A stretch of 64,000 nucleotides of DNA from an uncultured Campylobacter sp. Lineage in GTDB: Bacteria; Campylobacterota; Campylobacteria; Campylobacterales; Campylobacteraceae. The stretch covers positions 8,335 through 72,334 of the forward strand of contig NZ_CALBWL010000051.1 in the NCBI RefSeq assembly GCF_937973075.1, in the 5' to 3' direction. Shown one piece after another: positions 9,095 through 54,544 of the stretch (positions within the stretch are counted from its first letter, which is position 1; every line of letters begins with the position of its first letter). A program made the translations under genes and the position numbers. The notes below the pieces were generated by a model, which saw only the letters and a program-made list of their open reading frames with translations, had not been told where the DNA came from and did no database searches.

Positions 9095-9380
9095 TGCAAA
9101 ACTCCTTATAAAGTAATTTTTTTAACGGCGCGCAGAATTCTAAAGATTTCAGCAGGTAAAATCCGAATTATCTTTATAATTCAGTGGTCGGAATTCTATG
9201 CGGAATTTTATCCTAAAATTTCGCAAGTGGAATTTTACTCCACGGAAGCTAAATCTAACTTGATGAAATTCTGCATCTACGGAATTCTGCACGATCGATC
9301 TTATCTATTTTGAATTCTACTTTGCGGAATTTCGCCTGTTAAATTAACTGATGAAATTCCGCGCCGCACCTAGTTTGGAA

Positions 9381-10787
9381 CTATTTTTTGCTCATATGTG
9401 GGTTGAGCATAGATTTAGGCTCTAGGATCTTATCGATCTCCTCTTTTTTCAAATATCCGCGCTCTAAGCAGATTTCGCCTACGGATTTGCCTGTTTGCAA
9501 CGCCTCTTTGGCGATACTTGCGGATTTTTCGTAGCCGATGTAGGGATTAAACGCCGTAACGATACCGACAGAATTTAGCACCGATTTTAGGCAAGCTTCA
9601 GGATTTGCCTTTAGATGTTTGATAGCTTTTTCGGCTAGTGTATTCATCGCATTTTCTAAAAGCACGATCGAGTTAAATAACGCATATGCGATGCCAGGCT
9701 CGAACGCATTTAGCTCAAATTCTCCGCGTTCGGAGCAAAGCATGATCGTAACGTCGTTGCCGATAACTTCATAGCATGCCTCGCCTACGACCTCGGCGAT
9801 GACTGGATTTACTTTGCCCGGCATGATGGAGCTGCCCGGTTGCATCTTAGGAAGCTCTATTTCGCCTAGTCCGCATCTAGGACCGGAGTTCATAAGACGT
9901 AGGTCGTTTGCGATTTTGCTTAGGCGGACGGCTGCTGTTTTTAACGCGCCGCTAACGTGGACGAAGTCCGCGGTGTCTTGTGTAGCGGCGATGAAATCCT
10001 CTGCGGCTTTAAATTTAACGCCGGTGATTTCGCCCAGTTTTTTCTCGACTACGTTTTTATAATCAGGGTGGCAGTTGATGCCCGTACCAATCGCCGTAGC
10101 GCCCATATTTAGGTAAGTCATAGACTCCCTAGCGGCTTTGATAAGCGCGATATCGGTTTTGATGTAGGTAGCAAAAGCATTGAAAGTGTTTCCAAGAGTA
10201 GTAGGAACGGCGTCCTCAAGCTCTGTCCTTCCCATTTTGATGACATCTTTGTATTCTTTGGCTTTAACTTCAAGCTCTTTTTTCAAATTTTCCATAGCTT
10301 TTAGTAGATCGGTTAGCTTGGCGTAAGCGGCGACTTTGATCGAGCTAGGATAGGTATCGTTGGTGCTTTGACCCAAATTTGTGTGATCGTTTGGATGAAG
10401 GTATTGGTATTCGCCCTTTTTATGTCCCATGCTCTCCAAAGCTATATTGGTAATGACCTCGTTGGTATTCATATTCGTTGAAGTTCCGGCGCCGCCTTGG
10501 ATCATATCGACTACGAATTGATCTCTAAACTCTCCTGCGATAAGTCTGTCGCAAGCTTTTGCAATCGCATCGGCTTTTTGTGCGTCTAGGACTCCGACCT
10601 CTTTATTGGCTAGCGCAGCTGCTTTTTTGATTTGTGCAAATGCTTTGATAAAAAACGGATAGTCTTTGAGTGCTCGTCCGCTTAGGTGGAAGTTCTCTAG
10701 TGCCCTAAATGTTTGCACACCGTAGTAAAAATCGTCGGAAATTTCTAATTCACCGATGAAATCGTGTTCTTTTCTGGTCTTTGCCAT
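9381..10787 (-). CDS. aspA: Aspartate ammonia-lyase
   Basis: 468 aa. Fumarate-lyase signature GSSIMPGKVNP. Aspartase-like N-terminus (RKEHDFIGE..YYGVQT). Confidence 0.95.
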   Translation of the reverse strand: MAKTRKEHDFIGELEISDDFYYGVQTFRALENFHLSGRALKDYPFFIKAFAQIKKAAALANKEVGVLDAQKADAIAKACDRLIAGEFRDQFVVDMIQGGAGTSTNMNTNEVITNIALESMGHKKGEYQYLHPNDHTNLGQSTNDTYPSSIKVAAYAKLTDLLKAMENLKKELEVKAKEYKDVIKMGRTELEDAVPTTLGNTFNAFATYIKTDIALIKAARESMTYLNMGATAIGTGINCHPDYKNVVEKKLGEITGVKFKAAEDFIAATQDTADFVHVSGALKTAAVRLSKIANDLRLMNSGPRCGLGEIELPKMQPGSSIMPGKVNPVIAEVVGEACYEVIGNDVTIMLCSERGEFELNAFEPGIAYALFNSIVLLENAMNTLAEKAIKHLKANPEACLKSVLNSVGIVTAFNPYIGYEKSASIAKEALQTGKSVGEICLERGYLKKEEIDKILEPKSMLNPHMSKK

Positions 10788-11101
10788 AATAAGTCCTTTC
10801 GTTGAAATTGTTAATGGAATTTTAAAGCTTTTAGTATTAAAAGTAGCTTAAAACGTAACGAAAAATTAAAATTTAGAAATTAGTATGATTGTTTAAGGCT
10901 TTAAATAGAATTTTACTTAAAAATATTTTGGAATTCGCTACTAAGGCATAATTACACTTTAATAGAAATATCGTATCGCACGCAGATTATGAAAGTGGAA
11001 TTATAAAAATTCTTGTTTAGCTTAAATTATAATTTGAAAAATTTGAAGTTAAAGGCGGTAAAATGGAATTTTTCATTGTATTTATATTTACTAGAACGGA
11101 G

Positions 11102-11900: not shown

Positions 11901-11936
11901 ATATAAATTTAATAGTCTCGCGCCTTAAAATTAAAA

Positions 11937-13652: not shown

Positions 13653-13885
13653 ATTTAATCCTTTTGGTTAAAATTTCGCGGTATTATAGCAGGTAGAATT
13701 TTTAATGTCAAGTGTTTTTATATGATTTTTTAAAATTTTATCTAAAATATTCTAAAATTCGATATTTTTACATATATTTAAATACTACATTTTATTGTAT
13801 AATGCAGAATTGGCACGCTTTAATGAGCGCTTTACATAAATTCCGCTAAAATCGCAAAATTTAAAATTTTAAAAAAAGGCTAAAG

Positions 13886-16501
13886 ATGGCAGATTTTTAC
13901 GACGCGAAAGCCGTAGAGGAGAGCTTTTATAAAATTTGGGAGCAGCGCGGTTATTTCGAGATCGACGGCAATAAAGATATCCAGCAAAAAGGCAAAAACT
14001 TTTGCATTATGATGCCCCCTCCTAACGTCACCGGAGTGCTTCATATCGGGCACTCGCTCACTTTTACGTTGCAAGACATAATGACGCGATACAAGCGAAT
14101 GGACGGCTACCGCACGCTGTGGCAGCCGGGGCTTGATCACGCAGGCATTGCAACGCAAAACGTCGTCGAGCGCGAGCTTTTGGCGCAAGGGATCAAAAAA
14201 GAAGAGATAGGGCGCGAGGAGTTTTTAAAGCACGTTTGGCACTGGAAGGAGCAAAGCGGCGGGCAGATCGTAAGGCAGATGAAGCGCCTGGGCGTCACGC
14301 CTGCGTGGAGCAGACAGCGCTTTACTATGGATGAGGGGCTTAAAAACGCCGTGCGCAAAGCATTCGTAAGCTTATACGACGCGGGACTAATCGTACGCGG
14401 AAACTACATGGTAAACTGGTGCACGCACGACGGCGCACTAAGCGACGTGGAGGTCGAGCACAAGGAGAACAAGGGCAAGCTTTATTATCTGCGTTATTAC
14501 TTTTCGGACGCGCAAGATAAATTTATCGTAGTGGCTACTACGCGACCCGAGACCTACTTCGGCGATACTGCGGTGATGGTAAATCCCGCGGACGAACGCT
14601 ATAAAAATTGGATCGGCAAAAAGCTCGTGCTGCCGCTAATCGGCCGCGAGATAGAGATCATCGCCGACGAATACGTCGATATGAGCTTCGGAACGGGCGC
14701 CGTAAAGGTCACTCCCGCGCACGATACCAACGACTACGAGGTCGGCAAGCGCCACGAGCTGGAGTTTATCACTGTTTTTGACGAAAAAGGAATTTTAAAC
14801 GAGCAGTGCGGTAAATTTAATGGTTTAGAGCGACTTGCTGCGCGCGATCAGATCGTAGCGGAGCTTGATCGGCTGGGCTTTATCGAAAAAATCGAGGACT
14901 ACGAAAATCAAGTCGGCTACTGCTACCGCTGCAAAAACGTCGTCGAGCCGTACATCTCGCAGCAGTGGTTCGTGCGCGCAGATATCGCAAAAGATGCGAT
15001 CTCTAAGGTAAATTCCGGCGAGGCGGAATTTTTCCCGAAGCACTGGATCAATAGCTTCAACGCCTGGATGCGCGAGCTGAAGGATTGGTGTATCAGCCGC
15101 CAGCTGTGGTGGGGGCATAGAATTCCCGTGTTTTACTGCGACTGCGGCCATCAGTGGGCGGATGAGCGAGAGAGCCCCGATGTCTGCCCGAAATGCGGCG
15201 GTAAAAATTTTACTCAAGATCCCGACGTGCTCGATACGTGGTTTTCAAGCGGTCTTTGGCCGATCAGTACGCTTGGCTGGGGCAACGGCGAGGCGCTGAA
15301 AAACGAGAAGTGGTTTGAGGGCGATTTGGCGGAATTCTATCCCAATACGATGCTGATTACCGGCTTTGACATTTTGTTTTTCTGGGTCGCGCGCATGATG
15401 TTTCAGTGCCAAAACGCCATGGGCGAGCTGCCGTTTCGCGACATCTATCTGCATGCCTTAGTTAAGGACAAAGACGGCAAAAAGATGAGCAAATCGAGCA
15501 AAAACGTAGTCGATCCGCTGCTAAAAATCGATGAATTTAGCGCCGATATTTTGCGCTTTACGCTTACGATTTTGTGCGTGCAGGGGCGCGATCTGCGCCT
15601 TAGCGACGATAAGCTTTTGATATATCGAAATTTTACGAACAAGCTTTATAACGCGAGCAAATTTTTGCTTTTAAACGCTTCTAAATTCGACGATTTAGAC
15701 GCGGCGCAGATCAAAACGAGCCTCGGCAAATATATGCTTTCGCGCTTTAATTGCTGCGTGAGCGCGGTGCGGGAAAATTTAGACGAATACCGCTTCAACG
15801 ACGCTGCGACCGAGCTTTATAAGTTTTTTTGGGACGAGTTTTGCGACTGGGGCATTGAGCTTAGCAAGGCGGACAAGGCCGCGATCGGTGAGCTAGGGAT
15901 GATTTTTAAAGAAGCGATGAAGCTACTAAGCCCATTTATGCCGTTTCTAAGCGAGTATCTTTATCAGGAGCTAAGCGGCACGAAGCTACAAGACGCGCGC
16001 TCCATCATGGTGATGCGATACCCGCAGCCTGGCGAGCGCAACGAGCGGATCGAGGAGCTATTTTCGCTCGTTATTGAAGCGATCGTTAGCATTCGCCGCG
16101 CAAAGGCGACGATCGAGCTCGGCAATGCGCGCGTAGCCAAAGCCTACGTCAAATCTGCAGTCGATCTAAGCGCCGCCGCAGACTACATTAAAACGCTTGC
16201 CAAGGTAGATGAAGTGGAATTTACGCAGCAAAATATCACAAATTCCGCCCGCGACGTAAGCGAGAGACTAGAAACTTTCGTACCGCTTGATGGAGTTGAT
16301 CTTAGCGGCGTGGTTTCGCGCCTTAGCGCGCAAAAAGCGAAGTTGCAAAAAGAGATCGAAAAGCTCTCTGCGATGCTAGACAATGAAAAATTTATCTCCT
16401 CCGCGCCCGCTGACGTCGTCACCGCAAACCGCGAAGGGTTGCAAAGCGCGCAGGAAAAATTCGCCAAAGTATGCGACGAGCTAAAGGCGTTTGACGAGTA
16501 G
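13886..16501 (+). CDS. valS: Valine--tRNA ligase
   Basis: 871 aa. HIGH-type motif (PNVTGVLHIGH), KMSKS, and a C-terminal coiled coil. Confidence 0.97.
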   Translation: MADFYDAKAVEESFYKIWEQRGYFEIDGNKDIQQKGKNFCIMMPPPNVTGVLHIGHSLTFTLQDIMTRYKRMDGYRTLWQPGLDHAGIATQNVVERELLAQGIKKEEIGREEFLKHVWHWKEQSGGQIVRQMKRLGVTPAWSRQRFTMDEGLKNAVRKAFVSLYDAGLIVRGNYMVNWCTHDGALSDVEVEHKENKGKLYYLRYYFSDAQDKFIVVATTRPETYFGDTAVMVNPADERYKNWIGKKLVLPLIGREIEIIADEYVDMSFGTGAVKVTPAHDTNDYEVGKRHELEFITVFDEKGILNEQCGKFNGLERLAARDQIVAELDRLGFIEKIEDYENQVGYCYRCKNVVEPYISQQWFVRADIAKDAISKVNSGEAEFFPKHWINSFNAWMRELKDWCISRQLWWGHRIPVFYCDCGHQWADERESPDVCPKCGGKNFTQDPDVLDTWFSSGLWPISTLGWGNGEALKNEKWFEGDLAEFYPNTMLITGFDILFFWVARMMFQCQNAMGELPFRDIYLHALVKDKDGKKMSKSSKNVVDPLLKIDEFSADILRFTLTILCVQGRDLRLSDDKLLIYRNFTNKLYNASKFLLLNASKFDDLDAAQIKTSLGKYMLSRFNCCVSAVRENLDEYRFNDAATELYKFFWDEFCDWGIELSKADKAAIGELGMIFKEAMKLLSPFMPFLSEYLYQELSGTKLQDARSIMVMRYPQPGERNERIEELFSLVIEAIVSIRRAKATIELGNARVAKAYVKSAVDLSAAADYIKTLAKVDEVEFTQQNITNSARDVSERLETFVPLDGVDLSGVVSRLSAQKAKLQKEIEKLSAMLDNEKFISSAPADVVTANREGLQSAQEKFAKVCDELKAFDE

Positions 16502-20094: not shown

Positions 20095-21259
20095 AAAGAC
20101 TGCTTTAACGCTTAAAATTCTATCTTTATATCTCATTTCAAGCGCGTTATTTTTAGGATATTTTTTCAAGATAAATTACAGGATGAACGAAGCCGCGCTA
20201 CTTTCGCACAGGATAAAAGAGCTAAAAGAGATCAAAATGATGATCTATATGAAAGCAAGCATGGACGGGCTGGAATCGCTAGCGGACTTTGAGCGCGAAA
20301 AGGGCGTGAGTGCGTGTATATTTAAGCCAAACTCTGATGAAATTTACGGCTGCAGTGGTGAGCTTGGCGCACTTGATAAAGCGAAGCTAAAGGCGGAATT
20401 TATAAGTGGCGGAAGGCTAGGAATTTATGAAAATCTGCAAAATATGGAGGAGCGAAACGCCTTTTCCAAGGCTAAAATCATTCTGCTTGGAAGTAGCGTG
20501 CAGGGCGAAATTTTAACGCTTCGTATCAAAACCGCAGCGATGATGATAGCGCTTTTGGGTGTGATATTAGCCGTGGCGTTTTATCTGGTGCGGCTAGGTA
20601 CAAAGCCGCTTTACGATAAGATTGACACGCTAAATCGCTTCATCAAGGATAGTACCCACGAGATTAATACTCCGCTTAGTATTATCTCCATGAGCGTCGA
20701 GACGATGCGGCACGCAGAGCTTGGAGAATACAACGCCAAGCGCGTCGCTAATATCGATCTTGCCGCTAAGACGCTTTCGCGCATCTACGAGGATCTTGTG
20801 TTTTTAACCTTCGGTATGAATAAGGAGGGCGAGATTAGCTCGATCGATCTAAAAAGCCTCGTTGCTTCGCGCTGCGAATACTTCGCGCCGTTTATTCAAA
20901 AGCGCAGACTAAGCCTTAAAACCGATCTTTCGGATGCGAGCATGAACGCAAATATTTATGAAATTTCGCGCCTGATCGATAATCTGCTAAGTAATGCCGT
21001 AAAATACGCCAACGCAGGCGGCTACGTGGATGTGCGGCTAAGGCACGGCGAGCTGGCGATCTCAAACAGCGGCGAGGGGATCGATAAGAAAAAAGGCGAC
21101 GAAATTTTCAGGCGCTTTGCGCGCTTTAACTCAAGCGAGGGCGGCTTTGGAATCGGGCTTAGCATCGTAAGCGAGGTCTGCAAAAAATACTCCTTTTCTA
21201 TCTCCTACGACAGCGTGCCGGGCGAGATAACGACCTTCCGCCTTACGTGGCGCGAATAA
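20087..21259 (+). CDS. Sensor histidine kinase
   Basis: 390 aa. Two TM segments flank a periplasmic domain of about 120 aa. H-box STHEINTPL, N-box LLSNAVKYA, G-box GFGIGLSIV. It overlaps the regulator gene. Confidence 0.9.
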   Translation: MSEKTALTLKILSLYLISSALFLGYFFKINYRMNEAALLSHRIKELKEIKMMIYMKASMDGLESLADFEREKGVSACIFKPNSDEIYGCSGELGALDKAKLKAEFISGGRLGIYENLQNMEERNAFSKAKIILLGSSVQGEILTLRIKTAAMMIALLGVILAVAFYLVRLGTKPLYDKIDTLNRFIKDSTHEINTPLSIISMSVETMRHAELGEYNAKRVANIDLAAKTLSRIYEDLVFLTFGMNKEGEISSIDLKSLVASRCEYFAPFIQKRRLSLKTDLSDASMNANIYEISRLIDNLLSNAVKYANAGGYVDVRLRHGELAISNSGEGIDKKKGDEIFRRFARFNSSEGGFGIGLSIVSEVCKKYSFSISYDSVPGEITTFRLTWRE

Positions 21260-21503
21260 AATTTTAAAATTTAGTGAAATTTTAAAATTTAAAAGCGACC
21301 GCCTGCGGTTTAAATTTAATCGTCGTTTGGTCGCTTAAATTCCGCGCAAAAAGGCTCTAATTGCCGGAGCGTTTAAATTTAATCGTCGCTTGTTTTTGTT
21401 CTAAAACGGAGCGCGGAATTTTATCAGTCGTTCGCTTTGCGCTCGTAAAATGACCCTAAAAGTTATGGGTGCGGAATTTTATTCGTCCGCGATTTCATAA
21501 AAT

Positions 21504-22124
21504 TTAGCTTTTATTTCTTGATAAGTATATCCAGTGGATTATATTACTGAATAAAATCGGAACAGATATACCAAAAAACATTGAGCCGCCTCCAAAAAAC
21601 GATAGCCAACCAAACAGGCTCTCTCTGCTCGCAAAAGTTGGAAACGTCCGCCCGTTGCCTACTTTGTGTGGGATGCCGTTTATGGCAAAATCGGCGTAGA
21701 AATAATTATTTAGAAGCCAATAGATAAAAGGTATGCCGATAAGCATAATTAGCTGCGTCTTGACGGCGGGAAGCTCTTTTTCATATAAGAATACGGCGAT
21801 TGGATAATACACGCAGCTTAGCGCGAAAGCCGTTAAAATAGGTACCCACAATGCCGCGACGTAAAATTCCGCAAGCTGCGTGTGCGGGCTTATTTTGCCG
21901 ATTGCGGCGATGTTTGGAAAAAACCGCTTCATAAATCCAACGAAGTCCGCGCATGCCGCACTTACGTCTAAAATATTTTCGGGTAGCACGAATACGCTAA
22001 GCGCCGTGATCGCAAACAGCGCGAAAACCGCCGCGTAAAGCCGCCCGAAAAATTTAGTAAATTTCGTATCGGGATATGACGCCTCTTGCTCTTGCGCGCC
22101 TTGAGAATTCGGCAGATCGCTCAT
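21504..22124 (-). CDS. Hypothetical polytopic membrane protein
   Basis: 206 aa. RBS AAAGGAG. Several hydrophobic segments. No family recognised. Confidence 0.6.
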   Translation of the reverse strand: MSDLPNSQGAQEQEASYPDTKFTKFFGRLYAAVFALFAITALSVFVLPENILDVSAACADFVGFMKRFFPNIAAIGKISPHTQLAEFYVAALWVPILTAFALSCVYYPIAVFLYEKELPAVKTQLIMLIGIPFIYWLLNNYFYADFAINGIPHKVGNGRTFPTFASRESLFGWLSFFGGGSMFFGISVPILFSNIIHWIYLSRNKS

Positions 22125-23884: not shown

Positions 23885-25482
23885 TAATTCTCTCCCGCTT
23901 GAATGGCGCTGATAAGTATCGTGTTTACGATGTCGGCGACCTTGCAGCCGCGGCTTAGATCGTTTATCGGCTTTTTTAAGCCCTGCAGAATCGGCCCGAT
24001 CGCCACGGCGCCTGCGGTGCGCTGAACGGCCTTATAACAGATATTTCCGCAGTTAAGATCGGGGAAGATAAATACGTTCGCACGCCCTGCGACCGCGGAG
24101 CCGGGCATCTTTTTCTTAGCGACTGCAGCATCGACTGCGGCATCGAATTGCAGCGGCCCGTCGATTGTGAGCCCCGGCGCCTTTTCGCGCGCTTTTTGCG
24201 TTGCAGTTTTTATGAATTCTACGCTATCGCCGCTGCCGCTATCGCCGCTGGAGTAGCTTAGCATCGCCACGCGCGGCTCAAGCCCAAACGCCTTTGCGGT
24301 CGCGGCACTTGAGATCGCGATACCCGCCAGATACTCTGCGCTCGGGCTCGGCGCTACGGCGCAGTCGGCAAAAAGCAGAGCCTGCGTATCCAGGCACATT
24401 ATAAATGCGCCGCTAACGGTAGCGATGCCGGGCTTTGTCTTGATGATCTGAAGCGCGGGGCGGATCGTCTCTGCAGTAGTCGTGCCGGCACCGCTTACCA
24501 TCGCATCGGCCAGCCCTTCATACACGAGCATCGTGCCGAAGTAGGTGCGATCGCGCACTAAATCGCGTGCCTGCGCCTCGCTCATACCCTTTGCCTTGCG
24601 AAGCTCATATAGATCGCGCGCAAATTTTTCTAAGCTCGCATCCGTCTGCGGATCTAAAATTTTAACACCCGCTAGATTAAGACCTAGCTTGCTTGCGCTT
24701 TTTTGCACTTCGTCTTGCCGCCCTAAAAGGATCAAATTTGCAGCACCGCTTTGTTTTATAATCGCGGCCGCGCGCAGAATTCTCTCATCGTCGCTTTCTG
24801 GAAGTACGACGGTTTTAACGTTCGCGCGAGCCTTGGCGTAGAGCTTGCTTTCAAATTTCAACGGGGTTAGAATTTCACAGCGCGTGGAGTTTGCGGCATC
24901 AGTGAAGTAGCTTTTGTCGGTAACGACTTTATCAAGCTCTATCGCGCCGCTTTGGCACGCAGAATTTTCGTCGTGAAATTTTGCATCACTTTCGCAGGCG
25001 GAATTTTTATCGCAAAGCTCCGATTTTTTAGAATTTGCACCCTCTTGTGCAGGTCTTAGCGCGGAAAATGAAATTTTATCCTCATATATGCTGGCAAAGC
25101 TTATCGCTTTTGCTGCGGCGATCGAGTGCGTGCCAATGCGCGCGGCAATTTCGTTAGGATAAAATCCGCAAACGGGGATATTTAGATCCTTTGCGATTTG
25201 TAAATTTAGCTCGCGCAGATCGGCTCCCGCTACGCCGCGAACCAGTACAAAATTGCACTGCTCTAAAATCTGCGTAAAGCGCTCTATCGCCGCCTTTCGC
25301 ACACGCTCATCCTGCCCATCCGCGAGCGCTTTTTCAAGCTCGCTCCTGCTAAAAAGGGCATTGTCGCCAGCGATGCAAAGTTGCAAAACGTTGTGAAAGC
25401 TCATGGATAAAATTTTATCTAGTTTTTTTAGCTCGGATTGGTAGGCGGCAGGCTCGTCGCATAGGAGCAAAATTCCGTTCAT
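23884..25482 (-). CDS. pta: Phosphate acetyltransferase
   Basis: 532 aa. The C-terminal PTA_PTB domain is clear (VVLPESDDERILRAA, DGPLQFDAA, FPDLNCGNICYK). TAATG overlap with ackA. Confidence 0.9.
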   Translation of the reverse strand: MNGILLLCDEPAAYQSELKKLDKILSMSFHNVLQLCIAGDNALFSRSELEKALADGQDERVRKAAIERFTQILEQCNFVLVRGVAGADLRELNLQIAKDLNIPVCGFYPNEIAARIGTHSIAAAKAISFASIYEDKISFSALRPAQEGANSKKSELCDKNSACESDAKFHDENSACQSGAIELDKVVTDKSYFTDAANSTRCEILTPLKFESKLYAKARANVKTVVLPESDDERILRAAAIIKQSGAANLILLGRQDEVQKSASKLGLNLAGVKILDPQTDASLEKFARDLYELRKAKGMSEAQARDLVRDRTYFGTMLVYEGLADAMVSGAGTTTAETIRPALQIIKTKPGIATVSGAFIMCLDTQALLFADCAVAPSPSAEYLAGIAISSAATAKAFGLEPRVAMLSYSSGDSGSGDSVEFIKTATQKAREKAPGLTIDGPLQFDAAVDAAVAKKKMPGSAVAGRANVFIFPDLNCGNICYKAVQRTAGAVAIGPILQGLKKPINDLSRGCKVADIVNTILISAIQAGEN

Positions 25483-25594
25483 CGGCTGATCCTTTGAAAT
25501 AAGATAGTCAATTGTAGCAAAATTTTGCTTGCGTGTTAATCAAAGATTTATCGTGAGGGTTTAAAATTTGGTAACTTCCAACAAAGGAGCGCAC

Positions 25595-26332
25595 ATGAAA
25601 AATTTAGTGATTTTGGCTCTTTTAGTGAGCCTCGCCGCGGCGAAAATCAACATAAACGAAGCTAGTCGCTACGAGCTGATGACGATCGGTGGGCTTGATG
25701 CGGGTAGGGCGGATATGCTTATGCAATACCGCCAAAAGCGCGAAATTTCAAGTGCAGATGAGCTAAAGGGCATCAACGGCTTTGCAAGTTACGATACTGC
25801 TAAACTGCAGAAGAGCTTTGAAATATCGCCTAGAGCTAACGTGCAGCAGCCGGTGCAGCCTGATCGCGATATAGTCGTGGTCGAAAAGACCCGCACCCGC
25901 ACGGTTTACGGAGGCTCTACTTACAGACGCGTGGAAAATTACGGAAACGGCATCACGATCACAGAGACTGGCACTTTACCGCCTCCTCTTCCGCGAGGAT
26001 ATGGTAGGCACGGCGGCATGATGCCGCCTCCTCCCCCACCTCCTGGCGGCATGCCACCACCTCCGGGAGGCATGCCACCACCTCCGGGAGGTATAAAACC
26101 GCCTCCTCCGCCACCGCCACCTCCATCAAGTGACTATTACCACAGAAGTTCTAACCGTATGAGCGATAGTGAAATTGGCGGAAGCTCGCGCCGTAACATG
26201 CCGGTGCCTATGCATATGGGAACGATCCGCTCGAAAAGATCCAGTAGCGTCACAAGCTTCGGCGACTGCGATCCACAAAGCGGCAACTGCGCTAGCGTGG
26301 GCGTAGGCGTGCAGGTAGATAGAGGGTTTTAA
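25595..26332 (+). CDS. Secreted ComEA-like helix-hairpin-helix protein with polyproline repeat
   Basis: I placed the start at MKNLVILALLVSLAAA, which follows AAAGGAG. KININEASRYELMTIGGLDAGRADMLMQYR is ComEA/HhH-like. It is followed by PPPPPPPGGMPPPPGGMPPPPGGIKPPPPPPPPPS. Confidence 0.7.
   Translation: MKNLVILALLVSLAAAKININEASRYELMTIGGLDAGRADMLMQYRQKREISSADELKGINGFASYDTAKLQKSFEISPRANVQQPVQPDRDIVVVEKTRTRTVYGGSTYRRVENYGNGITITETGTLPPPLPRGYGRHGGMMPPPPPPPGGMPPPPGGMPPPPGGIKPPPPPPPPPSSDYYHRSSNRMSDSEIGGSSRRNMPVPMHMGTIRSKRSSSVTSFGDCDPQSGNCASVGVGVQVDRGF
26048..26089 (+). repeat. Perfect 21-bp tandem duplication (GGMPPPP unit)
   Basis: GGCATGCCACCACCTCCGGGA occurs twice in tandem inside the proline-rich segment. 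Confidence 0.85.
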
Positions 26333-31867: not shown

Positions 31868-31920
31868 TTGCGGCGTGAAATTTCGAGTCTTGCGGCGTGA
31901 AATTTCGAGTCTTGCGGCGC
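31868..31920. repeat. 22-bp tandem repeat, 2.4 copies
   Basis: TTGCGGCGTGAAATTTCGAGTC at 31868-31889 and 31890-31911, then the partial copy TTGCGGCGC. Confidence 0.85.
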
Positions 31921-36198: not shown

Positions 36199-37744
36199 TT
36201 TGTTTGTCCTTTTTCTCATTTTCTTGATTTAAAAATTTTTCGTAGTTTTCTTGCAGTTCAAAAATTTCGACCAGCGCGTTTACCGCGTTATCGGCATTAT
36301 CTGCGTCGCCGAGGTTTTTTAAATTTACCGTCGGAGCGTGCAGAAACGCTTTAAAAACCTGATGGATCAGCTTGCGCGCCTCCTCTGCATCGCTGTGCTT
36401 TAGATAGCCCTTTTTAAGCGCTTTGGCTAGCTCTAGCTCGGCTACTTGTTTTGCGCTTTGGCGCAAAGCCTTGATGATCGGCGTGGATGCCGCCGCCCTC
36501 AGCCATTTGAAAAACTCGTTCGTGCATTTTGCCACGATCGAATAGGCGATCTGCGCCTGCTCCTCGCGAAGCAGCAAATTTTTCTTTACGATCTCCTCCA
36601 GATCATCGACGCTGTAAACCTCGACGTCCTCGCTTTGGCTAAGCTCTACGTCGCGCGGCACGGCTATATCGAAAAAATATCGCTTAAAGCTTTTGGGTTC
36701 TAGCAAGCTATCGGTAATGATCGACTCTTGCGAGCCAGTAGCACTGAAAAATAGGCTATTTACGTTTAAGTATTTTTTGAGATTATCAAGACTATCGATT
36801 TTAATGCGGGATTGTGCCTGCGCGGAGGAATTCGCGAAGGGGGCAGAATTTTTATCGCCTTTGGAATTTTCGCCTGCTATGTGAGATTTATTGCCGTCTG
36901 TGAAAATCTTTTTATTAAAATTTACGCTGTCTTTGGAATTTTGTTTTTGCGCGACATTTTCGCCTGCGAAATTCGCGACATTTCCGGAATTTAAGCCATT
37001 TGAATTTTTTCCTGCGCCGGGATTTTCATCCGCGCAATTTTTCGCATCCAAGGAATTTTCGCCAAGCAACGAGGCGGCTAGCCTCCGCGCGCCGGCTAAA
37101 TTTCGATTTAAGATCGTGATATTTGCGCCGCTTGCGAGCAGGTGTTTGCACGCTAGCTCGCTCATCTCTCCCGCGCCCACTACCACGGCGTTTACGCCCT
37201 GCAAGGAGCCTAGCTTTTCCTTTGCCATCGCCACGGCGACGCTTGAGACCGAGATCGGGTTTTTTGAAATTTCGGTCTGGTTGCGGATGCGTGCCGCACA
37301 CTTTAGCGCTTCATCTATCGCTCTTGCGATCTGCGCGCCAGCGTGGGAGTTTTGTTTGGCAAATTTAAAGGCGTCTTTGAGTTGGCCTACGATCTGCGTT
37401 TCGCCCACTACGAGGCTGTCAAGAGAGGCTGCAACGGCGAAAAGGTGGTGTATCGCGCCGTAATCCTCGTAAATATCGGCGCGCTCGGCTAGCTCGTCGT
37501 AGCTCACGCCGCTTACGCGTGAAAGCGCCAAAAGCACGAATTTGCTGGCTGCTTTGAAGTCGCTTACGGCGGTAAAAATTTCAACGCGGTTGCAGGTGCT
37601 AAGCACCAAACACTCCTCTATCGCGGAGTTTGAAGCCAAAAGGCGCAAAATTTCTTTCTTACGCACATCGTTTGAAAACGACAGCTTCTCGCGCACCGTG
37701 ATGTCCGTGTTTTTGTGGGTGAAGCTCACGCTCATATACGCCAT
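36188..37744 (-). CDS. hemA: Glutamyl-tRNA reductase with an internal low-complexity insertion of about 84 aa
   Basis: HKNTDITVREK, STCNRVE and GETQI motifs, with GAGEMSE in the NADPH domain. The ATG at 37744 shares the A of the ispB TGA. About 90-100 aa longer than typical HemA. Confidence 0.9.
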   Translation of the reverse strand: MAYMSVSFTHKNTDITVREKLSFSNDVRKKEILRLLASNSAIEECLVLSTCNRVEIFTAVSDFKAASKFVLLALSRVSGVSYDELAERADIYEDYGAIHHLFAVAASLDSLVVGETQIVGQLKDAFKFAKQNSHAGAQIARAIDEALKCAARIRNQTEISKNPISVSSVAVAMAKEKLGSLQGVNAVVVGAGEMSELACKHLLASGANITILNRNLAGARRLAASLLGENSLDAKNCADENPGAGKNSNGLNSGNVANFAGENVAQKQNSKDSVNFNKKIFTDGNKSHIAGENSKGDKNSAPFANSSAQAQSRIKIDSLDNLKKYLNVNSLFFSATGSQESIITDSLLEPKSFKRYFFDIAVPRDVELSQSEDVEVYSVDDLEEIVKKNLLLREEQAQIAYSIVAKCTNEFFKWLRAAASTPIIKALRQSAKQVAELELAKALKKGYLKHSDAEEARKLIHQVFKAFLHAPTVNLKNLGDADNADNAVNALVEIFELQENYEKFLNQENEKKDKQNEI

Positions 37745-38736: not shown

Positions 38737-38981
38737 TATTCGTTGTTGCTTAGGATATTCCCGCTCATTTGCAAAAATTTGTCGTTTAGCTCGTCTTGTA
38801 GATCCTGCTGCGTGATGAAGCTTTCGATCTCGCGCTCGCTAATGCCGCGCGCTTTGCAGAGCCGCTCACAGGCGATGAGGCGGATTAGAGCTTCTTCGAT
38901 CTCGTTTTGCACTAAAGTAGGGCTTGCAGCGGATAAAATTTCAAAAAATTTCTCTCTTGGGCTGCCTTCAAAAATATCCAT
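38736..38981 (-). CDS. Small conserved hypothetical protein (81 aa)
   Basis: TAATG overlap with the ispB start suggests co-translation. Acidic and helical. No family recognised. Confidence 0.55.
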   Translation of the reverse strand: MDIFEGSPREKFFEILSAASPTLVQNEIEEALIRLIACERLCKARGISEREIESFITQQDLQDELNDKFLQMSGNILSNNE

Positions 38982-39336
38982 TTACCTTCCTTAAAATTTC
39001 GCGATTATAGCAAATGTAAAATTTAATTTAGGTTAGGGCGCGGCAAACTATCGGGGCTTTTAAACAGGAACGATTGCATAGATTTTGCGCTTGCGTGTGG
39101 TAAATTTTAAACTTAAGCGCGGGATTTTGAGCTTTAAATTTCATAAATTTTAAAATTTTACTTGTTTGCGAGATAGGCAGAGCGAGCGGAATTTAAAAAT
39201 TTAATCTTGGTCGCGTGGCGGATTAAACGCGAAGCTTTGCAGATAGGCGGAATTTTAAATTTACAGATAAGCGGCTTGATTTTTTGCGGAAATTTTAAAA
39301 TTTTGTGGTGCGGGTGAAATTTTAGATTTCGCATGA

Positions 39337-39440
39337 GTGGATAGAATTTCGCTTTGTTTGAGCGATAAAATTCTTGAATTTTGCGCAGGTGGAGAGGATT
39401 TTCGCTTTGTTTGTGCGGTAAAATTTTGATTTTTGCGCGG
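39337..39440. repeat. 52-bp tandem repeat, two copies, with degenerate flanks
   Basis: GTGGATAGAATTTCGCTTTGTTTGAGCGATAAAATTCTTGAATTTTGCGCAG, then GTGGAGAGGATTTTCGCTTTGTTTGTGCGGTAAAATTTTGATTTTTGCGCGG. Confidence 0.8.
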
Positions 39441-39915
39441 CGGATAAATTCTATTCTCACAAAATCTAATCGTGTGTATAACACAGATCAGGCTTTTTAA
39501 AATTTTAAAATTCCGCCGCTTTGCGAGAATTTGAAATTTCATGGACGCGGTAGAATGCTAAAATCGCGTTTGCATTAAATTTTAAGTCTGGTTTTCGAGG
39601 CAAATTTTAAATTAAGCCGCGAGAGGGCGTCTTTAAATTTTTAAAATTCCGCCCCCTTTTACAGATAGAATTTCATTTTTCGCGCAGATAAAATATCGCA
39701 TTGCAAAAGATACTTTAAAATTTTAAATTCCACTCGCGCAGATGAAATTTCGGTTTTTGTGCTAGTGGAATTTTTCGCGCAAGGATTATTTTTAAATTTA
39801 AGCTCGCTTGCGTTGCACGCGAGGATGGAATTTACTCCGTTTTAAGAGCCTAAGCGTGATTTTGCCATGCTGCAATACTACTTTTAATTAGCTATGCCTA
39901 AAAAGCCAGGCTGCT

Positions 39916-40830
39916 TTAAATTCCGCCGATGATTTCGCGCGCTTGCGCGATGCTTAGGGCATTGCGACTTAGTTCGCTAGGCTCGCCAAACCCCCAGCAT
40001 ACCTGCAAATACTCAAGTTTTGCGCCTTTTAGATCTGCCAAGTTTGCCTGAAAATATCGCGCTGCCGCAGCTCGTGCGCTTTCCGTCGCTTCTGCTTTTG
40101 TGGAAATTTTAGCGCCTTTAAAGCTTAGCGTTGCCGCTCCGTCAGCACCTGTGTCGTTAGGGCGGATTTTTTCATCCGCGTTAAGATTTTCGCCGCAAGA
40201 GCTTAAGCTTCCGCTGCTAGCGCTGAAATTCTTTCTACTAGTGTCACGGCTGGCATTTAAGCTCTCGCCGTCATTGCCGCCTTGAAATTCTAAATTTTGT
40301 AAAAATTCCGCGCCACGGAGTGCGGCTAGCTCATCTTTTTTGCTATCGCCCAAAAAAATCGCGTTTTTGTGCGGCGAGCGCGCGATTACGTGTAGCAGCA
40401 TCGCAGGGTTGGGCTTTGAGGGCATCTGCTCGTCCGCGCCTACGACCAGATCAAATAGCCTGCGCACGCCCGTTTTTTCTAAGATCGCGCTTAGGGTATA
40501 GGAAGGTGCATTGGAAGCGACTGCGAGAAAAAATCCTGCTTTTTTGCACGAGTGCAAAAGATCTTCGATACCCTCGTAAAGCACGGCAAAATCGCGGTAA
40601 TTGCTTACAAATTCCTTCTCGAAAAAAGCAAGCTCTTCGGCGCTCGCTTCGGTTTTGCCGTAAAATTCCAAAAAGGCGTTTTGGCTTGGATCGTTGATGG
40701 TGTGGACGATGAAATTCTTTTGTAGCGGCGCTAGGCCGTAGAGCTCGCGGCGAGTGTTATTGACGCTGATTTCGATCGCGCTCGAGGAGTCAAGCAGCGT
40801 GCCATCCATATCAAAAATCACGGTTTTCAT
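39916..40830 (-). CDS. HAD-superfamily hydrolase (phosphoglycolate-phosphatase-like) with an insertion of about 97 aa
   Basis: Motif I FDMDGTLLDS, motif II VASNAP and motif III GDSKKD. A low-complexity segment lies between GDSKKDELAALRGA and YLQVCWGFG. Confidence 0.75.
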   Translation of the reverse strand: MKTVIFDMDGTLLDSSSAIEISVNNTRRELYGLAPLQKNFIVHTINDPSQNAFLEFYGKTEASAEELAFFEKEFVSNYRDFAVLYEGIEDLLHSCKKAGFFLAVASNAPSYTLSAILEKTGVRRLFDLVVGADEQMPSKPNPAMLLHVIARSPHKNAIFLGDSKKDELAALRGAEFLQNLEFQGGNDGESLNASRDTSRKNFSASSGSLSSCGENLNADEKIRPNDTGADGAATLSFKGAKISTKAEATESARAAAARYFQANLADLKGAKLEYLQVCWGFGEPSELSRNALSIAQAREIIGGI

Positions 40831-43075: not shown

Positions 43076-43990
43076 ATGAAAATAGCAAACGATGTTACGG
43101 AGCTCATCGGCAATACTCCGTTAGTCAGAATCAATACGTTTGGCAAAAATGCCCTCATCCTAGCCAAGGCGGAATTTTTAAACCCAAGCCACTCGGTCAA
43201 GGATCGCATCGCATGGCAGATCGTAAAAGACGCGCTAAGCTCAGGCAAAATCGATAAAAATAGCGTTTTGATAGAGCCTACCAGCGGAAACACGGGTGTG
43301 GGGCTTGCGATGATCGCAGCAAAGCTCGGTATGAAGCTCATTCTAACGATGCCAAGCTCGATGAGTATCGAGCGCCAAAAGCTCATAGCCGCATTCGGGG
43401 CTAAAATCGAGCTGACCGATCCAAAATTTGGAATGAAAGGCGCGGTAGATAGGGCAAATGAGCTAGCGGCGAACACTCCAAATAGCTTTATCCCGAGCCA
43501 GTTTGATAACCCGAGCAATCCAAAGGCGCATTTTCAAAGCACTGGACCTGAAATTTGGGAGCAAAGCGGCGGCAAGGTAGATATTTTAGTCGCGGGATTT
43601 GGTACCGGCGGCACGCTCAGCGGTACGGCGAAATTTTTAAAATCTAAAAATCCAAATCTCAAAGCCTACGGCGTGGAGCCTGCTAGCTCGCCGCTTCTTA
43701 CGTGCGGTAGTGCGGGCGGCCATAAGATCCAGGGCATCGGCGCAAATTTTATCCCTGATAATCTTGATAGAAGCGTCATCGACGGCTTTTTGAGCGTTGA
43801 GAACGACGATGCGTTCGCCGCGGCTAGACAGCTGGCACAAAAAGAGGGCTTGCTCGTGGGCATCTCAAGCGGTGCGAACGTTTATGCTGCCGCTCAGATC
43901 GCCGCCAAGCCCGAAAACAAGGGCAAAGTGATCGTTACGATCCTCTGCGATACCGGCGAGAGGTATCTTTCTACCGAGCTTTTTAAATAG
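43076..43990 (+). CDS. cysK: Cysteine synthase A (O-acetylserine sulfhydrylase)
   Basis: 304 aa. PLP lysine motif NPSHSVKDR, TSGNTG and GTGGT. Confidence 0.93.
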   Translation: MKIANDVTELIGNTPLVRINTFGKNALILAKAEFLNPSHSVKDRIAWQIVKDALSSGKIDKNSVLIEPTSGNTGVGLAMIAAKLGMKLILTMPSSMSIERQKLIAAFGAKIELTDPKFGMKGAVDRANELAANTPNSFIPSQFDNPSNPKAHFQSTGPEIWEQSGGKVDILVAGFGTGGTLSGTAKFLKSKNPNLKAYGVEPASSPLLTCGSAGGHKIQGIGANFIPDNLDRSVIDGFLSVENDDAFAAARQLAQKEGLLVGISSGANVYAAAQIAAKPENKGKVIVTILCDTGERYLSTELFK

Positions 43991-51112: not shown

Positions 51113-51232
51113 AAATTTTGCCTTTATTTTTGAAAATTTGCGCGTATTATAGCCGTTTTTCTAGGATTTAATTAAATAGAAACTAAAAATATGTTAATAT
51201 GCGCGGTTAAAATTTTAAAACTAAGGTTTGAG

Positions 51233-53851
51233 ATGTTTAAAAAGGTCATCCACGGGATTTTCGGTACTAAAAACGATAGGATCGTCAAACAATACGCCAA
51301 GCGTGCAGCACAGATCAGTGCGCTCGAGGAAAACTACGCAGCGATGGACGATGCGGCGCTTAAGGCGGAATTTGAAGCGTTAAGAGCGCAAGTTCGCGCA
51401 GGCGAAAAGAGCACGGACGACGTGCTTAACGAAGTGTTTGCTATCGTGCGAGAGGCGGGCAAAAGAGTGCTAAATATGCGCCACTTCGACGTTCAGCTGA
51501 TAGGCGGTTTGGTGCTAAACGACGGCGCGATTGCTGAGATGAAAACGGGCGAGGGAAAGACCCTCGTAGCGACTTTGGCGGTAGTGCTAAATGCGATGGA
51601 GGGCAAGGGCGTGCATGTCGTGACCGTAAACGACTATCTAGCTAAGCGCGATGCCGCGCAAATGGGCGAACTATATGAATTTTTAGGGCTTAGTACCGGT
51701 GTAATCGTAGGCGGCGAATACGATGACGCCAAGCGCAAGGCTGCATACGCGTGCGACATCACCTACGGCACGAACAACGAGTTTGGCTTTGACTATCTGC
51801 GCGATAATATGAAATTTAACGCGGATGAAAAGGTGCAGCGCGGGCATCATTTCGTAATCGTCGATGAAGTAGATAGCATCCTGATCGACGAAGCCAGGAC
51901 GCCGCTAATCATCTCGGGTCCTACGAACCGCACTCTAGACGGCTACATCAAGGCAAATGAAGTAGCTCACCAAATGATCCGCGGCGAGGCGCCAGCCGAT
52001 CCGAAAGGCAAAGCTACGGGCGATTTTACCGTAGATGAGAAGAACCGCGCCGTTTTGATTACGGAGGCAGAAATTTCAAAAGCCGAGAAGCTTTTTGGCG
52101 TCGATAACCTCTATAGTCTCGAAAATGCCGTGCTTAGCCACTACCTTGATCAAGCACTTAAGGCAAATTATCTATTTGAAAAGGATGTGCATTACGTCGT
52201 GCGCGACGGGCAGGTCATAATCGTGGATGAATTTACGGGTCGTCTTAGCGAGGGTCGCAGATTCAGCGAAGGGCTCCATCAGGCTCTTGAAGCTAAAGAG
52301 GGTGTGCAGATCCAAGAGGAGAGCCAAACTCTTGCCGACATTACCTTTCAAAACTACTTCCGTCTTTACGAAAAACTCGCCGGTATGACGGGTACGGCAC
52401 AGACGGAAGCAACGGAATTTTCTCAAATTTACAAACTCGAAGTGGTCTCTATCCCTACGAATGTGCCGGTCATCAGAAAGGATCAAAACGATCTTATCTA
52501 CAAAACCGAGCGCGAGAAATTTGATGCCGTCATAAATGAGATCAAGCGGCTAAATTCTAAAGGTCAGCCCGTGCTAGTGGGTACGGCGTCGATCGAAAAG
52601 AGCGAGAAGCTGCACGAGCTTTTGGTTAAAGAAAACATCGCGCACTCCGTGCTAAACGCCAAAAATCACGAGCGCGAGGCGCAGATCATCAAAGACGCAG
52701 GCGTAAAGGGCGCAGTTACGATCGCTACGAATATGGCGGGACGTGGCGTGGATATCCGTATAGACGATGAAGTGCGCGCTTTGGGCGGGCTATATATTTT
52801 AGGTACCGAGCGCCACGAAAGCCGCCGCATCGATAATCAGCTCCGCGGACGAAGCGGGCGACAGGGCGATCCGGGCGAGAGTAGGTTTTTCTTAAGCTTG
52901 GAGGATAATCTGCTTAGAATTTTTGGCAGCGACAAGATCAAAAATATCATGGATCGCTTGGGTTTAAAAGACGGCGAACATATCGAATCAGGTATGGTTT
53001 CGCGCGCCGTAGAAAACGCGCAGAAAAAGGTCGAGAGCTTGCATTTTGAAGCGCGTAAAAATATCTTAGAATACGACGACGTCGCAAACGAGCAGCGCAA
53101 GACGATCTATAAATATCGCAACGAGCTTTTGGATCCAGACTACGATCTGAAAGACAAAATCATTCAAAACCGCGAGGAGTACATCTCTAGCGTGCTTGAG
53201 GAGCTTGAAATTTTCGACGGCGCAAATATCAAAGAGGTCGATAAATTCCCGATCGTCGCCAAAATTGCTCAAGAAACGGGCGAGGTACTCGAAAATAGCG
53301 AGCTTGAGAAGGTCGATGATTTCAAAGAGCTGAAAGAAAAGATCATCGGCGCGCTTGCCGTTTCGTATGAAAACAAGATGGCGTCGATTGATCCGCAGCA
53401 GCGCAAAAGTATCGAAAAGATGCTTTATTTGCAGATCGTCGATCGCGACTGGCGGGAGCATCTGTATCAGATGGATATCCTAAAAGCGGGCATCGGACTT
53501 CGCGGCTACAACCACAAAGACCCGCTTACGGAGTATAAAAAGGAGAGCTACAATCTCTTTATGGAGCTTGTAATGCGCCTTAAATCCGATAGCATCCGCT
53601 TGCTGCATTCGATCCAGTTTAAATCTAGGGAGGAGATAGAAGCCGAGCAGCGTGCGATGCAGGAGCGTATGGAGAGCTCAAACGCCAAAGAACTCGCCGC
53701 TGCAAGCACGAATGAAGCGCAGCTAAAGGGCTCAGACGAGTTCGGCGACAAAAAGCCTAAGCGAAACGATCCTTGCCCTTGCGGCAGCGGCAAAAAATAC
53801 AAAGACTGCCACGGCAAGGGCGGTCCTAAAAAAGGCGGCTTTGCGAGGTAG
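51233..53851 (+). CDS. secA: Preprotein translocase ATPase SecA
   Basis: I placed the start at [12 protein letters not shown], which follows [14 protein letters not shown] Walker [20 protein letters not shown], and a C-terminal zinc motif [14 protein letters not shown]. Confidence 0.97.
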
Positions 53852-54544
53852 GCGCGGCGATCGGTCGTAATATCGCGCGATCGGTGATTTCGATTGCGAG
53901 CATTGCGTAATTGGTGCTTTTCGACCTTGCTTTGCTTCTGTGCTCAGCGGATATGTCGCGGGCGAGAGCGTCATAAAATTTTAAAGGGACTTGATCGCGA
54001 GGCGGTGCGGACGGCGCGCAAAGCTGCGCGATGGGGCGGAATTTTGGTTTTAAAATTTCAAAGCGTGCCTGATGCTTTGCCGCATATTTTTCATAGCGCT
54101 GTTGCGGTGCGCCGTGCGGCAAAACGTGAACGGCGCACGGTGCTTAAATTTAGCGTGCGGCTAGGATATTGCGCGTATTTGAAATTTTAAATTTATGCGA
54201 TTGTGGGAGAGCTTTTTAAGCGAAATCCGCTTTTTAAATTTTAAGAATTTCAAAATTCTAAAAGATTTGGAATTTCTAAAAATTTTAAAATTTCAAGTCG
54301 TTTGAAATTTTAAAATTTAGAATTCGGGTTTAAAATTTCAAAGTTTTGGTAAAGAGGTCTGTTTGATTTGCCGTATCCGATATCTCTTGGGGTAAATTTC
54401 ATTTTATGTAAGTAGATTTCGGCGCGATTTTAAATTTTCAAAACTCGCCGGAGCTTTTATATTTGAAGGCGCAAAACCTATTTTTGGAATTTTAAAATTC
54501 CAAAATACTTAAAATTTCACATATAATTTAGCGCTAAATTTTAT

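Follow-up and report, generated by a model that had tools for sequence, protein, structure and literature searches.

The over-represented 9-mer GCGGAATTT of an uncultured oral Campylobacter as one spelling of the palindrome RAATTY

Does the 9-mer GCGGAATTT, which recurs throughout a 64-kb stretch of DNA from an uncultured Campylobacter sp. (contig NZ_CALBWL010000051.1; the whole stretch is called the window below), act as an uptake or recognition signal, as an original prediction made from the letters alone had proposed? We find that the 9-mer is no signal in its own right, but a frequent way of spelling RAATTY, a degenerate palindrome of 6 bp, which is probably, by homology with Campylobacter jejuni, the methylation-dependent uptake tag of the genus. 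The original prediction therefore pointed to the right biology, and its closing remark that the motif embeds an RAATTY site named the actual signal; the 9-mer as the unit did not hold up, since its sub-words predict its count and its flanks diverge. The host belongs to a clade that we refer to as the oral clade: the ValRS encoded in the window is 94–97% identical to those of human-oral “uncultured Campylobacter sp.” metagenome-assembled genomes (MAGs) and 74% identical to that of C. concisus, identical proteins are present on human oral metagenome contigs, and GCA_019423325.1 is a relative.

The 9-mer and its hexameric core

An exact search of both strands of the window retrieves 26 copies of GCGGAATTT, against 2.93 ± 1.68 (maximum 8) in 100 dinucleotide-preserving shuffles, which bears out the predicted over-representation. 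The 23 copies listed earlier, in a count given as non-exhaustive, are all correct in coordinate and strand, and three more had been overlooked, at 5775 and 21864 on the minus strand and 35779 on the plus strand; the earlier expectation of ∼0.5 copies at uniform composition likewise agrees with our Markov order-0 value of 0.51. Context mapping upholds the division of the copies among non-coding DNA, low-complexity inserts, and ordinary coding sequence (Table 1). Confident genes hold 12 of the 26, eight of them reading in frame as Ala-Glu-Phe (GCG GAA TTT), three lying antisense, and one falling over the stop codon of a HAD hydrolase gene. The other 14 are found in spacers or in small doubtful open reading frames (ORFs) that are probably not genes. 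Two copies fall within low-complexity segments, one in the inter-domain linker of pta (24998) and one at the start of the HAD hydrolase insert (40303).

Positional and strand bias had been named as checks on the prediction; we find a single inverted pair (9324/9354) and a 16:10 split between plus and minus strands that is not significant (binomial P = 0.33). The pair lies immediately behind the aspA stop codon, ahead of dcuA, and forms a stable hairpin (−20.4 kcal/mol, z = −3.9), with both arms identical in six relatives and no T-run after it; this may be a terminator or processing hairpin. A repeat or mobile-element family was rejected as carrier of the 9-mer: the aligned flanks share nothing beyond a following T. 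In the window, Tandem Repeats Finder reports small arrays only, unrelated to GCGGAATTT.

Markov expectations, computed from sub-word counts of the window itself, rise from 0.5 copies at order 0 through 3.0 (order 1), 4.6 (order 3), 12.0 (order 4), and 18.7 (order 5) to 26.4 (order 6) and 25.1 (order 7), so that the excess is inherited from shorter words. It falls from ∼50-fold (order 0) and 9-fold (dinucleotide) to 2.2-fold at order 4 (Poisson P = 3e-4), and is gone at orders 5–6 (P = 0.06 at order 5). Because the count of GCGGAATTT is predicted by its own sub-words, the 9-mer is not the unit, and the proposed excess over a sub-word background disappears, with 26.4 copies expected at order 6 and 26 observed. 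The sub-words in excess all contain AATT (AATTT, 1188 versus 474; GGAATT, 107 versus 27–51; AAATTT, 900 strand-counts versus 220 expected). Ranked by abundance, GCGGAATTT is the 23rd commonest 9-mer of the window, and all 22 above it carry (R)AATT(Y), e.g. AAATTTTAA at 99 copies.

Relatives place the boundary of the conserved unit. We aligned window positions 3870–26560 with six collinear relatives at ∼94% nucleotide identity, each representing a different GTDB species. In non-coding DNA the three symmetric core positions of RAATTY diverge by 1.9%, 0.8%, and 3.5%, as compared to 7.6%, 7.4%, and 5.7% directly outside the hexamer. The constraint footprint is exactly six bases, and no conservation signal was found in the non-coding flanks outside it among these relatives. 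At third codon positions, divergence is 5.3% inside sites and 11.8–14.9% outside. Conserved flanks, which the original prediction had proposed to look for around the 9-mer, are thus replaced by a 6-bp constraint: the GCG prefix of non-coding GCGGAATTT copies diverges by 5.1%, near background, against 1.9% for the core, and relatives that differ read GCAGAATTT, GTTGAATTT, or GCGAAATTT, retaining RAATTY and losing the flank. There is no G-C-G preference in the flank logo, and the prefixes TTG, GTG, and GTA before GAATTT are enriched equally or more than GCG.

These results also bear on whether GCGGAATTT, or the 10-mer GCGGAATTTT, could be a clade-specific uptake sequence of the type of the Neisseria DNA uptake sequence (DUS) or the Pasteurellaceae uptake signal sequence (USS), read as a 9–10-bp word by a dedicated receptor. 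Such a word would agree with the 26 copies where 2.9 are expected (0.4 per kb), with GCG being the top prefix before GAATTT (26 versus 7), and with the inverted pair that makes a hairpin after a gene end. It would also agree with a distribution limited to the high-GC oral clade, in which GCGGAATTT is present at 4–8 copies per 10 kb, there being none in C. concisus and the other Campylobacter loci compared, which are still RAATTY-dense; nor is the word enriched in another 45% GC Campylobacter-like lineage (L071). We nonetheless consider a dedicated 9- or 10-mer very unlikely, given that hexamer to octamer sub-words reproduce the count, that 22 RAATTY-type 9-mers are commoner, that other prefixes do as well or better, that logo and divergence both pass over the GCG, that eight of the 12 genic copies are Ala-Glu-Phe in favored codons, and that the strands are unbiased. 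In the oral clade, GCG is the third commonest trinucleotide and the favored Ala codon. Ala is the commonest residue preceding Glu-Phe, and eight of the 10 Ala-Glu-Phe tripeptides are spelled GCGGAATTT, so the genic excess of the GCG prefix is largely Ala-Glu-Phe. The 9-mer would then be RAATTY in a GCG-rich background when it lies in spacers, and the favored codons for Ala-Glu-Phe when it lies in genes.

RAATTY itself occurs 686 times in the 64 kb (one site per 93 bp, 10.7 per kb), 3.1 times the 222 ± 14 of dinucleotide shuffles and ∼9-fold over base composition (∼76 expected by arithmetic at 47.5% GC). The sites comprise 450 AAATTT, 209 GAATTT/AAATTC, and 27 GAATTC, and these are the only three of the ten NAATTN classes that are enriched under an order-2 model (4.1×, 3.0×, and 2.4×, respectively). 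The remaining seven, with a 5′ pyrimidine or a 3′ purine, are depleted to 0.19–0.53×. As a result, 83% of AATT tetramers (686/826) are RAATTY, and RAATTY words are 13–20 times commoner than words of equal composition such as AAATTA (R...R, Y...Y). So sharp an R/Y preference speaks against a general effect of A-tracts or AT-richness; curvature of A-tracts alone was rejected, given the enrichment of GAATTC and GAATTT and the depletion of AAATTA and AAATTG. Under the same order-2 model several palindromic hexamers are avoided (CACGTG 0.08, TCTAGA 0.11, GCCGGC 0.15, AGGCCT 0.15, CAATTG 0.19, CGTACG 0.20, and TCCGGA 0.20), a pattern that looks like restriction avoidance.

The sites are spread over the whole window, at 10 to 43 per 2-kb bin. 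We found no RAATTY-poor islands marking foreign DNA in the window, its lowest bin holding 10 sites per 2 kb. Confident genes carry 7.4 sites per kb and spacers 24 per kb, where a phosphoribosyltransferase gene (59878–60426) was counted as spacer, leaving the conclusions unchanged. Within spacers, sites cluster 7–8 bp apart and peak just outside gene ends. Spacer densities are alike whether the neighboring genes are divergent (18 per kb), tandem (22), or convergent (15), and RAATTY is therefore ruled out as a promoter or terminator element.

Coding sequence, protein inserts, and the genus

RAATTY is also in excess within genes, where all three reading frames are used. Coding sites number 355, as compared to 142 ± 8 when synonymous codons are shuffled and 88 ± 9 when whole codons are, and non-cognate coding AATT is halved (71 versus 141 expected). 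Observed counts lie above each of the dinucleotide, order-2, synonymous-codon, and whole-codon shuffles, at z = 26–32. Of the positions at which the protein would permit RAATTY by synonymous choice, 351 of 514 (68%) are realized, against 25% expected from codon usage. Lys-Phe is spelled AAATTY in 80 of 83 cases, and Glu-Phe uses GAA in 48 of 70, even though Glu is overall more often encoded by GAG. The dipeptides Lys-Phe, Glu-Phe, Asn-Phe, and Asn-Ser are themselves ∼1.4–1.5× over-represented, which is not so for the reversed Phe-Lys (0.86) and Ser-Asn (0.69); reversed Phe-Glu (1.09) and Phe-Asn (1.33) are less clear-cut. Together, the dipeptide and codon biases mean that DNA-level pressure extends into protein sequence.

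Several housekeeping proteins carry low-complexity inserts, whose DNA is as RAATTY-dense as spacers (25.7 per kb, versus 6.6 per kb in conserved cores). Their peptides are repeats of x-Asn-Phe, x-Asn-Ser, Lys-Phe, and Glu-Ile-x, i.e. RAATTY translated in three frames. RpiB and HemA carry the inserts listed in Table 1; the insert and extension of RpiB read as Asn-Phe/Asn-Ser-rich low-complexity peptide. Extended RpiB (445–469 aa) is conserved in the clade, in more than 120 of its protein clusters at 83–100% identity, and the inserts are therefore stable features rather than assembly errors. Low-complexity inserts or extensions also occur in the minus-strand genes at 37744–38736 and 50033–50599.

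We compared valS neighborhoods of 10–23 kb. All Campylobacter loci compared have 6.7–12.1 RAATTY sites per kb, with observed/expected ratios (order 2) of 1.25–4.0 at 27–49% GC, while those of Sulfurospirillum, Hydrogenimonas, Sulfurimonadaceae, and Campylobacteraceae/Campylobacterales MAGs have 1.0–5.9 per kb, with ratios of ∼0.8–1.6 at 27–51% GC. Absolute density is thus near-constant in Campylobacter loci over a 20-point GC range, and the lowest Campylobacter ratio (1.25) is found where AT content is highest and many sites are expected from the background alone. Among the loci compared, RAATTY pressure is confined to Campylobacter; non-Campylobacter loci of like GC (S. cavolei at 45.5%, Hydrogenimonas at 48–50%) stay at ratios of ∼1–1.5.

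A functionless by-product of base composition, of codon or amino acid usage, or of a dispersed repeat family might be suspected in a genome that is rich in AAA, TTT, and GCG, where Ala-Glu-Phe and Lys-Phe are ordinary peptides and low-complexity AT-rich spacers are common. We give this a negligible probability: it is already refuted by the shuffles, every one of which is exceeded, and by the 6-bp conservation footprint. The equal-composition words AAATTA, TAATTA, and CAATTG are depleted, the like-GC loci outside Campylobacter show no comparable excess, and no repeat family, tandem array, or Rfam match explains the copies.

Methylation, uptake, and other possible roles

The orphan methyltransferase CtsM (Cj0208) of C. 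jejuni produces RA(m6A)TTY, and uptake in that species is limited to DNA with the methylated site, according to passages of PMC10046745, PMC8468864, and PMC8627207 that cite Beauchamp et al. 2017. Passages of the first two (PMC10046745 and PMC8468864), citing the same work, place the requirement for methylated RAATTY at the first uptake step, into the periplasm, and report that a single GAATTC site methylated in vitro by M.EcoRI is enough as a signal in C. jejuni constructs. Published methylomes show full methylation of RAATTY in C. jejuni, C. coli, C. lari, and C. fetus, and the RAATTY methylase is the sole one conserved across all C. fetus clades. The published motif counts (27.5k, 28.2–28.5k, and 24.75k strand positions) amount to ∼8.4, 8.4, and 6.5 sites per kb, that is, 8.4 in C. 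jejuni and C. coli and 6.5 in C. fetus.

By homology with these species, RAATTY in the uncultured oral clade is probably the same methylation-dependent uptake tag. We observe here directly what the unit is and that it is R/Y-specific, nearly saturates coding sequence, has a footprint of exactly 6 bp, and is restricted to Campylobacter among the loci compared; the methylation and uptake link is what we infer from C. jejuni, C. coli, C. lari, and C. fetus. The proposed mechanism would begin with an orphan N6-adenine methyltransferase, a CtsM/Cj0208 orthologue encoded outside the window, that would methylate the third base of every RAATTY; the competence machinery would then import solely DNA bearing methylated RAATTY. 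Uptake bias with homologous recombination, direct selection, or both would prevent decay of sites and convert near-cognate ones, so that the motif could fill each tolerant place: spacers, weakly constrained protein inserts, and permissive synonymous positions. The saturation, the depletion of one-off sites, and the slow decay fit such uptake bias with recombination, or selection for proficiency as donor and recipient, as has been argued for DUS and USS.

The sole competence-type gene found in the window encodes a secreted ComEA-like protein with a signal peptide and a helix-hairpin-helix DNA-binding domain. Its match to Pfam PF12836 HHH_3 (E = 3.8e-6) is just above the Pfam cut-off and that to TIGR01259 comEA (E = 2.5e-6) is below the curated cut-off. 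It may serve as a competence DNA receptor, one whose C-terminus is unusual. That C-terminus is a long poly-proline/PPPGGM repeat arising from a 21-bp tandem repeat at 26036–26106, and the gene adjoins pta-ackA. This protein and the evolutionary constraint on the sites lend indirect support to an uptake role.

Several points weigh against the uptake tag. No methyltransferase gene was found in the 64-kb window by Pfam search of ∼50 ORFs, and the literature search found no report of RAATTY methylation or uptake specificity in this clade or in any oral Campylobacter. Slow divergence within sites would also be seen if RAATTY had another sequence-specific function, or if methylated sites mutated less often. 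The 209 oriented GAATTT sites are preceded most often by GCG (26 versus 7.0 expected, ∼3.7-fold), and the 2.2-fold order-4 excess (P = 3e-4) of GCG-prefixed GAATTT is only partly accounted for by Ala-Glu-Phe codons. Separately, phmmer with an approximate sequence of E. coli Dam as the query, rather than CtsM, found no methyltransferase in 83 loci.

Enrichment of RAATTY for a reason other than uptake, such as epigenetic regulation or chromosome maintenance by an orphan methylase, or a nucleoid or architectural protein on the rigid AATT core, we regard as unlikely, though the likeliest of the alternatives. In favor of such a reason, AAATTT belongs to the classic bending elements of the A-tract type, with TTTAAA enriched far less (1.8× versus 4.1×); sites in spacers lie in clusters 7–8 bp apart and peak just beyond gene ends; the footprint proves a sequence-specific function and not its kind; and methylome papers discuss regulatory roles of RAATTY methylation. 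From bending, however, one would not expect the R...Y specificity, 13–20× over R...R and Y...Y, which matches the methylase and uptake motif exactly, nor that GAATTC and GAATTT are enriched too. Convergent spacers and protein inserts are as dense as DNA near promoters, and a tag spread over the whole genome accounts better than local regulation for the synonymous saturation seen in every frame of housekeeping genes. An uptake role, moreover, is experimentally established in the genus. The two kinds of role are not mutually exclusive.

It is improbable, if less so than a dedicated 9-mer, that the oral clade has evolved an extended clade-specific context atop the genus-wide RAATTY tag. The residual ∼3.7-fold GCG excess points to it, seen in genes (12 versus 4.3) and in spacers (9 versus 1.8), as does a weak flank bias in the oral clade, with T at −2 (1.8×; G 0.5×) and A at −1 (1.45×; C 0.5×), that is flat in the other Campylobacter loci compared. 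This bias partly reflects sites spaced 7–8 bp apart, as in AAATTT-TA-AAATTT. Should a methylase or uptake receptor read such a context, co-resident oral Campylobacter species could discriminate each other's DNA, and the same pressure would be near saturation and visibly writing Asn-Phe/Asn-Ser-rich inserts into housekeeping enzymes.

For the genus-wide tag, a known Campylobacter signal seen through a GC-rich background mimics a new 9-mer uptake sequence. To our knowledge, the six-base constraint, the occupancy of about two-thirds of permitted positions, the depletion of near-cognates, and the GC-independent density are newly laid out here for RAATTY; the literature search found no explicit analysis of its over-representation or constraint, and none of transformation of oral Campylobacter. 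The evolutionary pattern argues that methylation-gated uptake of the C. jejuni type is ancient, genus-wide, and strong enough to shape proteins. The uptake tag predicts that uncultured oral Campylobacter would be naturally transformable and would need RAATTY-methylated DNA, and methylating constructs with M.EcoRI or a CtsM-type enzyme may be of practical value for their genetic manipulation.

Features of the window and known systems

Table 1. Copies of the 9-mer, RAATTY-dense segments, and genes of the window
Feature	Position	Strand	Remarks
GCGGAATTT copy	5775..5783	-	end of doubtful 86-aa ORF, effectively spacer; flank varies in 3 of 6 relatives
GCGGAATTT copy	9200..9208	+	aspA-dcuA spacer (doubtful 80-aa ORF)
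Inverted pair of GCGGAATTT (9324+, 9354-)	9324..9362	-	10-bp-stem hairpin just downstream of aspA stop
GCGGAATTT copy	13838..13846	-	divergent spacer upstream of valS
GCGGAATTT copy	15023..15031	+	valS, in-frame Ala-Glu-Phe
GCGGAATTT copy	16240..16248	-	valS, antisense (Thr-Asn-Ser-Ala)
GCGGAATTT copy	20393..20401	+	histidine kinase gene, in-frame Ala-Glu-Phe
GCGGAATTT copy	21337..21345	-	convergent spacer shared with copies 21413 and 21471
GCGGAATTT copy	21413..21421	+	convergent spacer; GCAGAATTT in one relative (RAATTY kept, flank changed)
GCGGAATTT copy	21471..21479	+	convergent spacer; GCAGAATTT or GTTGAATTT in relatives
GCGGAATTT copy	21864..21872	-	206-aa ORF 21504-22124, in-frame Ala-Glu-Phe
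GCGGAATTT copy	24998..25006	+	pta inter-domain linker, antisense (Lys-Asn-Ser-Ala)
GCGGAATTT copy	26350..26358	+	spacer downstream of comEA-like gene
GCGGAATTT copy	28323..28331	+	acetolactate synthase large subunit gene, in-frame Ala-Glu-Phe
GCGGAATTT copy	35389..35397	-	proS, in-frame Ala-Glu-Phe
GCGGAATTT copy	35779..35787	+	proS, antisense (Lys-Phe-Arg)
Four GCGGAATTT copies	39186(+), 39247(+), 39508(-), 39644(-)	both	non-coding stretch 38737..39915
GCGGAATTT copy	39918..39926	-	overlaps HAD hydrolase stop codon (Gly-Gly-Ile-stop)
GCGGAATTT copy	40303..40311	-	start of HAD low-complexity insert, in-frame Ala-Glu-Phe
GCGGAATTT copy	43169..43177	+	PALP (cysteine synthase-like) gene, in-frame Ala-Glu-Phe
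GCGGAATTT copy	51365..51373	+	secA, in-frame Ala-Glu-Phe
GCGGAATTT copy	54036..54044	+	RAATTY-dense spacer 53852-54544
Densest spacer	26333..26756		23 RAATTY sites in 424 bp (54 per kb)
Non-coding stretch, 1.18 kb	38737..39915		36 RAATTY sites (30.5 per kb), four 9-mer copies
RAATTY-dense spacer	53852-54544		22 sites, 31.7 per kb
rpiB	58263-59642	+	459 aa versus ∼145-aa family profile
RpiB insert (aa 58-161) and C-terminal extension (aa 243-459)	58434..59639	+	25-29 sites per kb versus 2.4 in intervening catalytic core
hemA	36188-37747	-	519 aa with insert
hemA insert (aa ∼215-310)	36818..37105	-	10 RAATTY sites in 288 bp (34.7 per kb)
HAD hydrolase gene	39916-40830	-	304 aa, low-complexity insert
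pta	23884-25482	-	low-complexity inter-domain linker
ComEA-like gene	25568..26332	+	signal peptide, helix-hairpin-helix DNA-binding domain, poly-proline tail; PF12836 HHH_3, E = 3.8e-6
hemC	48588-49517	-	correct gene call rather than overlapping plus-strand ORF
Phosphoribosyltransferase gene	59878-60426

About 17% of the window lies outside selected ORFs, and the non-coding stretches at 38737–39915, 4224–6938, 53852–54544, and 55760–56549 are unusually long for Campylobacter. No tandem array was found in any of these four, and the second has no ORFs other than small doubtful ones and varies by many indels among relatives. Across the whole window no structured RNA was found, with no Rfam family at gathering thresholds and no tRNAs. 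Tandem arrays in spacers lie at 44037–44132 (33-bp unit, 2.9 copies) and 31853–31919 (22-bp unit, three copies), the latter containing GAAATTTC. Some close relatives have ∼0.9–1.0 kb extra between the metN-like ABC ATPase and response-regulator genes (window position 18792; L004 positions 14864–15917), and a 36-nt in-frame indel at ∼14518 in valS separates 871-aa from 883-aa forms. The operon-like plus-strand cluster at 784–2642, of CsgG-like, DUF4810, and GNA1162-like lipoprotein genes followed by DUF6847, is a conserved outer-membrane lipoprotein module.

Among known systems, Dam GATC and CcrM GANTC share with RAATTY a short palindrome methylated by a conserved orphan N6-adenine methyltransferase across a lineage. 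Their roles lie in repair, replication, or cell-cycle control, and they are not known to be enriched several-fold up to near-saturation. The DUS of Neisseriaceae (a 10–12-mer) and the USS of Pasteurellaceae (a 9-mer core with flanks) are likewise short over-represented words tied to natural transformation, found in coding and non-coding DNA and shaping peptide content, with an accumulation that is explicable by uptake bias and recombination. They are long non-palindromic words read directly as sequence, at ∼1 per kb and often as inverted pairs in terminators. The RAATTY unit, in contrast, is 6 bp, palindromic, and present at ∼10 per kb, and in C. jejuni it is recognized only when methylated; GCGGAATTT, for its part, fails the tests for conserved flanks.

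Cyanobacterial HIP1 (GCGATCGC) is a hyper-abundant methylated palindrome with a methylation-dependent boost to natural transformation (bioRxiv 10.1101/2024.09.10.611283), and the authors of that preprint themselves compare it with RAATTY, which they call a palindromic sequence for uptake in C. jejuni and describe as “occurring every 60 bp”. It differs in being 8 bp long and GC-rich and in belonging to a different phylum, and for HIP1 the choice between an uptake and a recombination role is unsettled. The CtsM/RAATTY system of C. jejuni shares with the window the 6-bp degenerate palindrome and its R/Y limits as well as the genus, occupies genes and spacers alike, and has a density of the same order (10.7 per kb here, versus 8.4 in both C. 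jejuni and C. coli and 6.5 in C. fetus). Unlike the 30% GC species, which exceed base composition roughly 2-fold, the oral clade at 47.5% GC exceeds it ∼9-fold, shows a slight preference in its flanks for T at −2 and A at −1, and packs sites into low-complexity protein inserts. Its methylase, methylation, and uptake dependence are putative counterparts of those described in C. jejuni.

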